Shown one piece after another: positions 25,906 to 33,160 of a DNA stretch of 64,000 bases. Position 1 is the first letter of the stretch, and the number at the start of each line of letters is the position of its first letter. The notes beneath the pieces are model-generated. The model worked only from the letters and a program-made list of their open reading frames with translations, did not search any database and was not told the DNA's origin. The position numbers and the translations under genes are program-made. The stretch is from Escherichia coli (GTDB lineage Bacteria; Pseudomonadota; Gammaproteobacteria; Enterobacterales; Enterobacteriaceae), in the NCBI RefSeq assembly GCF_022846255.1, contig NZ_AP025682.1; one strand, 5' to 3'.

Positions 25906-26050
25906 TGGTAAATCGGGGGCGTCTCTGCGCCCCCATCTGCAATATTTACAAATTCTTTGCACTTCCCTGCATTATCCGACACTGTCACCCTCCATAATTC
26001 AGACTTACTTTTTTATTACAATAACCTTATATTTATTATGGACTTTGGTG

Positions 26051-29050: not shown

Positions 29051-30355
29051 TTAATGCAACTTCAAACGTGGACGGATAACGCGGTTAATACTCCCCACCA
29101 GCATCATTAATCCGGTTTTAAAGTAACCATGCAGCGCAATCTGGTGCATTCGGTACAGCGAGATGTATACAAAGCGCGCAATTCGTCCTTCAATCATCAT
29201 TGAGCCGCGTGTCAGGTTACCCATCAGGCTACCGACGGTGGAAAAGTTCGACAGCGATACCAGCGAACCGTGATCTTTATACTGATAATTTTTCAGCGGC
29301 TTACCGTTCATCTGCGCCAGAATGTTGTTCATTGCGCAGGTTGCCATCTGATGTGCGGCCTGAGCGCGCGGCGGAACAAAGCCCCCTTCCGGACGCGGGC
29401 ATGACGCGCAGTCGCCAATAGCGTATATGTCTGGATCGCGAGTGGTTTGCAGCGTCGGTTCCACCACCAGCTGGTTGATACGGTTGGTTTCAAGACCACC
29501 GATATCTTTCAGGAAGTCTGGCGCTTTGATCCCGGCTGCCCACACCATCAGATCAGCCTCAATATATTCGCCATCTTTAGTGTGCAGGCCGCCTTCATCA
29601 GCACTGGTGACCATGGTTTGCGTCAGCACGCGAACGCCAAGTTTCGTTAACTCACTATGGGCCGCAGCAGAGATACGTGGCGGCAATGCAGGCAAAATAC
29701 GTTCGCCCGCTTCTACCAGCGTTACGTTCAGGGCTTCGTTGGTCAGACCTTTATAACCGTAACTGTGCAGTTGCTTGACCGCGTTGTGCAATTCAGCGGA
29801 GAGTTCTACACCCGTCGCGCCGCCGCCGACAATCGCAATGTTTACTTTGCCATTCGCGCCCAGGTTGGCGGAGTATTTCAGGAACAGATTCAGCATCTCC
29901 TGGTGGAAGCGACGCGCCTGGTGCGGGTTATCGAGGAAAATGCAGTTCTCTTTGACACCTGGCGTATTGAAATCGTTGGAGGTGCTACCCAGCGCCATTA
30001 CCAGGGTGTCATAGGCGATTTTACGTTCCGGAACCAGCAATTCACCTTTTTCGTCGCGCAGTTCTGCAATAGTGATTGTTTTCGCTTCACGATCAATATC
30101 AATTACGGAACCCAGCTGGAACTGGAAACCATGATTGCGCGCATGGGCCAGATAGCTCAACGCATCGACGCCTTCATCAAGCGAGCCAGTCGCCACTTCG
30201 TGCAGCAGCGGTTTCCACAGGTGGCTGTGGTTACGATCGACCAGCGTAATTTTGGCTTTTTTCTTGCGTCCCAGCTTATGCCCCAGCTGTGTTGCCATTT
30301 CCAGCCCACCAGCACCGCCGCCGACAATCACAATTTTTTTCAATGGCGTAGTCAA
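29051..30355 (-). CDS. ndh: NADH:quinone oxidoreductase II (NDH-2)
   Basis: ORF 29051-30382; probable TTG start at 30355 ([17 protein letters not shown]...), 434 aa. Confidence 0.93.
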
Positions 30356-30491
30356 CGTGACCCCCTTAAATTTATTAACCAATTGTTAATTAATGGTTAT
30401 TAACATAGCTCTTAATTAACAACAGGTTACAGCAATGAAAATGTTCTTCGCTATTGAGAATAACATGAACGGTGCATTGGTCATACCAAAA

Positions 30492-30505
30492 TTGATGTTA
30501 ATCAA
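30492..30505. promoter_or_regulatory. FNR-type site TTGAT-N4-ATCAA in the ndh upstream region
   Basis: Perfect ttgatgttaatcaa palindrome about 140 bp upstream of the ndh start; ndh is a known FNR-repressed gene. Confidence 0.55.
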
Positions 30506-30627
30506 GTTTTGTTGCTGAAAAGATAGGCGACTTTACCGGGTGAGATCAAAAAACAGAGTTTATTGTTTATTATTTGAGCGAATTTGTGAGAGTGATATAG
30601 AGTGAGGGGTGTATGGAGTGCGTTCGG

Positions 30628-30747
30628 TAGGCCTGATAAGAGGCGCATCAGGCATTGATGCTCGACTGTCGGATGCGGCGTGGACGCCTTATCCGACTTA
30701 CAGAATTCGGAGCGCATCAGGTACCGGCAAGGTTACCTGATGCGACG
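30628..30747. repeat. REP/BIME cluster (three palindromic units)
   Basis: gtaggcctgataagaggcgcatcaggc; gtcggatgcggcgtggacgccttatccgac; ggagcgcatcaggtaccggcaaggttacctgatgcgacg. Confidence 0.8.
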
Positions 30748-30754
30748 AGGGCAT

Positions 30755-31297
30755 TTACCCGAGGGTTTTGAACGCCTTAATGCGCTGCAAATGCGGGGAG
30801 ATATTCTTGAATTTGTGCGTCTGCTCTTCGTCCCAGACAATCTCGTAATAATGATGCAGCTCTTCAGATGTCCGCTGGCTGTTAAGCGCTTCATCATTAC
30901 GCGACAAAATCACCAAACAACGATCGCGATTCTTTTCGCGGAAGTTGGTCACACACTTAGTGGCAATATCGGCATACTCTTCCGGGCGATCAATCTTGCC
31001 TTCCATGTTCTCATAAGGGAACAAATTAGGGTTGAAGATCACCTGGCGGATATCGCAAAGAAAACCAATCCGTTCCGCCCAGTATCCGCCCAGACCAACG
31101 CCGCAAATCAGCGGACGCTCGTCGACGTTCAGTTGCAACATTTTGTCCACTTCTTTGAGCAGATGCTGCATATCATGTTTCGGATGCCGCGTACTGTAGC
31201 TTATCAAGCGTACATCCGGGTCAATAAACTGCAATTGTAAGACTTTCTCGTGGTTACCCGGACTGTTAGAGTCAAAACCGTGTAAATAGATAATCAT
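30755..31297 (-). CDS. ycfP: UPF0227 alpha/beta-hydrolase-fold protein YcfP
   Basis: ORF 30755-31354; start set at [18 protein letters not shown]..., 180 aa. Confidence 0.88.

Positions 31298-31319: not shown

Positions 31320-33160
<1,841 letters not shown>

Follow-up and report, generated by a model that had tools for sequence, protein, structure and literature searches.

Is the palindrome that lies upstream of ndh in this stretch of Escherichia coli chromosomal DNA a genuine binding site for FNR, and if it is, does FNR act from this site alone or from a pair of sites? The ndh product is the non-proton-pumping NADH dehydrogenase of aerobic respiration. An earlier note on the 64-kb stretch analyzed here (the window) had pointed to a perfect FNR-consensus palindrome at positions 30492-30505, citing as established knowledge that ndh is repressed anaerobically by FNR through tandem sites. 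With a probability of roughly 0.93, we identify this palindrome as FNR site I of E. coli ndh: the promoter-proximal operator, of consensus strength, centered at -50.5 relative to the transcription start.

In the RefSeq annotation, the ndh coding sequence (NADH:quinone oxidoreductase II) occupies positions 29051-30355 on the minus strand, with a TTG start codon at 30355. The Ndh protein is 100% identical in E. coli E69. Since a comparison of Ndh with NCBIfam returned no model above its cut-off, the identity of ndh rests on the RefSeq annotation and on the 100% protein identity. According to RefSeq, thiK, nagZ, ycfP, ndh, and ycfJ stand in the same order in the best match and in K-12 MG1655, and from the ycfP stop codon to ndh the window and K-12 differ by a handful of bases. 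Of 5,426 complete E. coli genomes, 5,425 match the 461 bases around site I, each time in the ycfP-ndh intergenic region; in the E. coli genome collection, 5 of the 5,441 ycfP-ndh intergenic matches came from records typed as plasmids. The promoter differs from that of K-12 MG1655 by a single base at 30470 (-22), which is G in the window and A in K-12; it falls outside all sites, in the spacer between the -35 and -10 elements, and both site I and the candidate upstream FNR site described below are identical to their K-12 counterparts. Nearly all E. coli genomes carry A at -22, while other genera mostly have G, and a match of at least 99% to the 91-bp promoter block of the window was present in 1 of 5,424 genomes. 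Between ycfP and the ndh promoter, positions 30621-30754 hold GC-rich palindromic units of the REP/BIME type, and the only Rfam match there, to naRNA4, covers REP elements at 30630-30698 and stays below the gathering cut-off of 59.5 on both strands, with 54.3 and 50.6 bits.

At 30492-30505, the window reads TTGATGTTAATCAA, exactly the string reported earlier; on the minus strand, which is the ndh sense strand, this is TTGATTAACATCAA, and all 10 of the 10 FNR consensus positions (TTGAT-N4-ATCAA) are matched. The near edge of the palindrome is 137 bp and its center 143.5 bp upstream of the ndh start codon, in keeping with the earlier estimate of about 140 bp. The surroundings are AT-rich, as had also been remarked, with a GC content of 0.34 in 30356-30620 versus 0.515 in the whole window.

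Whether a palindrome at this distance could regulate ndh depends on where transcription begins, and the earlier note had allowed for a mapped start that would place it at an incompatible position. In vitro transcription coupled with sequencing assigned the Pndh start to 1,165,992, described as the "known position," with more than 200 read starts (PMC10301672). This coordinate in U00096.3 corresponds to position 30448 of the window, on the minus strand; because it lies 93 nt before the TTG codon, coordinate conversion puts the center of site I at exactly -50.5, which is compatible with regulation. The same start is implied by the -50.5 given by Myers et al. (PMC3688515). Upstream of the start is an extended -10 element, TGnTATTCT, at 30457-30465 on the minus strand (-17 to -9), in which TG and TATTCT are invariant and n is variable across 81 sequences; the published ndh -10 is likewise TATTCT, with a -35-like TTGGTA and a 21-bp spacer (PMC10301672). 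A consensus promoter scan of 30300-30800 found no promoter, an outcome that is uninformative because the ndh promoter is non-canonical, having an extended -10 and a 21-bp spacer.

Direct evidence for FNR at ndh comes from K-12. By ChIP-seq, Myers et al. (2013; PMC3688515) placed ndh among the directly FNR-repressed operons, with a peak at 1,165,151 and a single predicted site, at -50.5; both ndh expression and sigma70 occupancy fell anaerobically in an FNR-dependent manner. In the supplement to that study, the bound site is given as TTGATTAACATCAA, with its start at 1165158 (U00096.2) and a position weight matrix score of 15.88. Via the K-12 alignment, the 14-mer of the window converts to 1165158-1165171 in U00096.2; the alignment to mapped sites that had been proposed as a check on the palindrome consequently yields the same 14-mer at the same genome position. 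FNR was also detected at ndh by ChIP-chip (Grainger et al. 2007). The anaerobic repression stated in the earlier note is supported. Conserved Fnr and ArcA sites have in addition been predicted at ndh in other gamma-proteobacteria (Ravcheev et al. 2007), the Fnr predictions extending to Yersinia, Serratia, Pasteurellaceae, and Vibrionaceae, and Freddolino's group described the ndh promoter as a set of overlapping sites for six transcription factors. Activating class II FNR sites (-41.5; narG, dmsA) share the TTGAT-N4-ATCAA sequence and the same protein, whereas the ndh site, centered at -50.5, lies 9 bp farther upstream and serves repression rather than activation (PMC3688515).

Compared with the K-12 ndh FNR site I, the palindrome has the same 14-mer at the same distances to the transcription start and to the start codon, and the flanking promoter is the same except for G rather than A at -22; it is the same element in another strain. 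For the present strain, FNR occupancy and repression are extrapolated from K-12 on the strength of the identical sequence. Positions 30492-30505 are the known ndh FNR site I, with nothing new in the site itself: the site, its binding protein, and its effect were already in the literature of 1989-1997, with genome-wide reconfirmation in 2007 and 2013. As a discovery the site is of little importance, being correct but ordinary; it serves as a positive control, in that a reading of the letters by themselves picked out a real, experimentally mapped operator. The primary footprinting of site I of K-12 ndh was reportedly the work of Green and Guest in 1994, and that of the ndh FNR sites is said to have come from Meng, Green, and Guest in 1997.

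The dataset of Myers et al. contains a second FNR ChIP-seq peak in this region, labeled ycfP, at 1164183 (U00096.2) with a weak matrix score (PMC3688515). It corresponds to approximately position 31480 of the window, at the 3' end of nagZ and upstream of ycfP; the closest FNR-like sequences in that vicinity, such as TTGATCGGTGACAG at 31459, depart from the consensus at 3 positions.

Conservation of site I was assessed in the best 80 ndh loci from species-level Enterobacteriaceae genomes, with Ndh identities of 92-100%. A perfect TTGAT-N4-ATCAA is present in 78 of the 80 species, its first base 148-152 bp ahead of the start codon. Each of the ten half-site columns is conserved in 79-81 of 81 sequences, in contrast with the spacer, where three of the four columns vary (G43/A19/T18/C1, C61/T15/A5, and C41/T40). 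The dyad survives in both exceptions: TTGAC-N4-GTCAA, a symmetric change in the two halves, in a Pluralibacter genome, and TTGAT-N4-GTCAA in isolate RIT691. Mean conservation is 1.00 at the half-sites versus 0.57 over -170 to -102. As judged from this alignment, strong purifying selection on the site I half-sites is shown, and conserved halves around a variable center would be the pattern expected of a dimeric protein that contacts the half-sites only. Because the invariant block continues from site I through the adjacent PdhR box, some of the pressure that preserves the ATCAA half and the bases flanking it could stem from PdhR or polymerase rather than from FNR.

This PdhR box, TTTTGGTATGACCAATG, was missed in the earlier note. 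It lies at 30475-30491 on the minus strand, centered at -35 and thus over the -35 region, and it includes a perfect TTGGT-N3-ACCAA palindrome as well as the GGTnnnACC core within AATTGGTnnnACCAATT. Anzai et al. (2020) list in their Table 1 an ndh PdhR box, ttTTGGTatgACCAATg, at 1165180, together with a gel shift on an ndh probe; after coordinate conversion, the box in the window matches the published one in sequence and position. The box resembles the PdhR operator of pdhR-aceEF-lpd, AATTGGTaagACCAATT, in having the GGTnnnACC core, and it agrees with the consensus at 11 of 14 positions. Across the 81 sequences, it is invariant or nearly so, and in laboratory evolution, selected mutations in the PdhR box raise ndh expression. 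PdhR (Anzai et al. 2020) and ArcA~P are likewise repressors of ndh.

The PdhR box, as the operator of a GntR-family protein, is an element separate from the FNR palindrome that it abuts. The two centers are 15.5 bp apart, and together the elements span 31 bp with no gap. One may ask if they form one invariant 31-bp composite operator throughout the Enterobacteriaceae, to which Escherichia alone has added an upstream FNR site at -94.5; we think this unlikely. If it were true, ndh control would ancestrally have relied on a single FNR dimer that worked alongside PdhR at the -35 region or competed with it, and the textbook mechanism in which two FNR sites are required would be lineage-specific.

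The second FNR site is the part of the tandem-site claim for which the evidence is divided. Candidate FNR site II is a TTGAT half-site, TTGATctcaCCCGG, at 30536-30549 on the minus strand, its center 44 bp upstream of that of site I, i.e., at -94.5. We take the ndh FNR sites of Meng, Green, and Guest from 1997 to be those at -50.5 and -94.5. The title of that paper, which states that ndh repression in E. coli needs two upstream sites that bind FNR, fits a TTGAT half-site at this location; against such a second site, candidate site II has 4 mismatches to the consensus, is confined to Escherichia, and is left out by the matrix of Myers et al. (2013; PMC3688515), which counts one FNR site at ndh. 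The literature searched and the supplements of Myers et al. held no relevant mention of -94.5 in connection with ndh and FNR. In the 80-species set, the half-site occurs in E. coli, E. albertii, and E. whittamii only. At the same 44-bp offset, no comparable FNR-like site was found in the other genera, the 14-mer having 4-10 mismatches in every species. In many genera an ATCAA recurs 17 bp upstream of site I; it was weighed as a possible second half-site and rejected, since it has 3-4 mismatches and would leave only 3 bp between the 14-mers.

We propose that, without oxygen, dimeric [4Fe-4S]-FNR would bind site I and, in Escherichia, probably also the weak half-site 44 bp (about four helical turns) upstream. 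Bound FNR would lower the occupancy of the promoter by sigma70-RNA polymerase and hence ndh transcription. Two FNR dimers placed 44 bp apart on the same helical face may disturb contacts of the polymerase alpha subunit with upstream DNA, as opposed to simply covering the core promoter. Site I is one member of a dense repressor cluster, together with the PdhR box over the -35 region and predicted ArcA sites in the leader.

The alternative to this scheme that deserves most attention is that FNR at -50.5 is ancestral and sufficient, acting mainly with the PdhR box and the ArcA sites of the leader, with the -94.5 site as an accessory of Escherichia and the two-site rule not general. The invariance of site I and the PdhR box in 80 species speaks for such a model, as do the mismatches of the upstream 14-mer everywhere, the restriction of the TTGAT half-site to three Escherichia genomes, the single ndh site given by the matrix of Myers et al. 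(PMC3688515), and the fact that ndh is repressed by PdhR as well as by ArcA~P. The 1997 title, by its wording, nonetheless demands two upstream sites in E. coli; moreover, degenerate half-sites are hard to see by sequence, and some genera do have weak FNR-like matches 45-49 bp upstream of site I. On balance, we regard sufficiency of the single site as possible rather than probable and retain, for Escherichia, the reading in which FNR acts from site I with probable help from the upstream half-site. A site I and a PdhR box frozen over 80 species, beside a second FNR site confined to Escherichia, add comparative detail on how the control of a respiratory gene evolved.

Which protein binds the palindrome can also be questioned, as CRP and FNR sites have a TGA-N6-TCA core in common and are confusable by eye. 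A site for CRP, or for another member of the CRP/FNR family, is nevertheless highly improbable here. The half-site at 30492-30505 is TTGAT, with T rather than the G of the CRP-type TGTGA at its second position, and this T, shared by 81 of 81 sequences, argues for FNR over CRP. The locus was, furthermore, detected by ChIP with FNR itself, in both the ChIP-seq (PMC3688515) and ChIP-chip (Grainger et al. 2007) experiments. We therefore keep the assignment of the palindrome to FNR.

The consensus match itself was set against the background of the window. Site I is the one perfect TTGAT-N4-ATCAA in the 64 kb; the expected number is 0.07, and 7 of 100 dinucleotide-preserving shuffles of the window contained at least one. 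At about 0.07 per 64 kb, a consensus match alone is suggestive and not decisive for an FNR site, and, with 87 in the window, perfect 5-N4-5 inverted repeats are common when their sequence is left free. These figures are what favors the view that the palindrome arose by chance in AT-rich intergenic DNA and has no part in regulation, the least credible of the readings, which is refuted in practice by half-sites that are invariant over 80 species next to a variable spacer and variable upstream DNA, by in vivo occupancy in K-12, and by the fixed spacing to a confirmed start. Weaker matches to TTGAT-N4-ATCAA are more frequent than expected in the window: 49 have at most 2 mismatches versus 32 expected, a count reached by no shuffle, and one-mismatch matches lie at 26045 and 51599. 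This excess may be an effect of codon composition.

The earlier note had also singled out a second near-palindrome, ttaaccaattgttaattaa, close to the ndh start codon. This string is indeed present, at 30375-30393 rather than 30373-30391, and it is self-complementary at only 12 of 19 positions; it covers the 3' arm of a larger AT-rich inverted repeat, TTGTTAATTAA and TTAATTAACAA, which extends over 30376-30429 with arms at 30412-30422 and 30383-30393. The repeat lies in the ndh 5' UTR (30356-30447 on the minus strand, 93 nt when +1 is included), which has a GC content of 0.29 and is nearly invariant across genera from +19 to +93. It carries TGTTAATTAA on both strands, a sequence that we take to be ArcA-box-like. 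ArcA sites have been predicted in the ndh leader at +36, +52, +57, +66, and +68, and ArcA~P represses in vitro; the paper cited for the ndh 5' UTR is that of Rolfe et al.

An RNA hairpin formed by this repeat was considered and dropped, the covariation being unconvincing. RNAalifold returned a long stem in the 5' UTR with 24 predicted pairs, nearly all of them invariant. The sole pair with changes on both sides had 5 compensatory versus 12 broken sequences, and a few others had one-sided changes only; the covariation term was -0.34 kcal/mol and the single-sequence z-score -1.64. Rfam gave no family match at the repeat. Because the stem pairs are invariant and lack covariation, the constraint appears to act on the primary sequence; such a constraint would fit DNA-binding proteins better than RNA structure.

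Translation of ndh begins at a codon other than ATG in almost all of the 80 species. TTG is used in most of them and GTG in Klebsiella, Raoultella, Yokenella, and a few others, with ATG found only in most Kluyvera and one isolate. A small hairpin is predicted in which the GGGGG ribosome-binding site pairs with ndh codons 2-4. The non-ATG starts and this predicted hairpin suggest that ndh translation initiation is deliberately weak.
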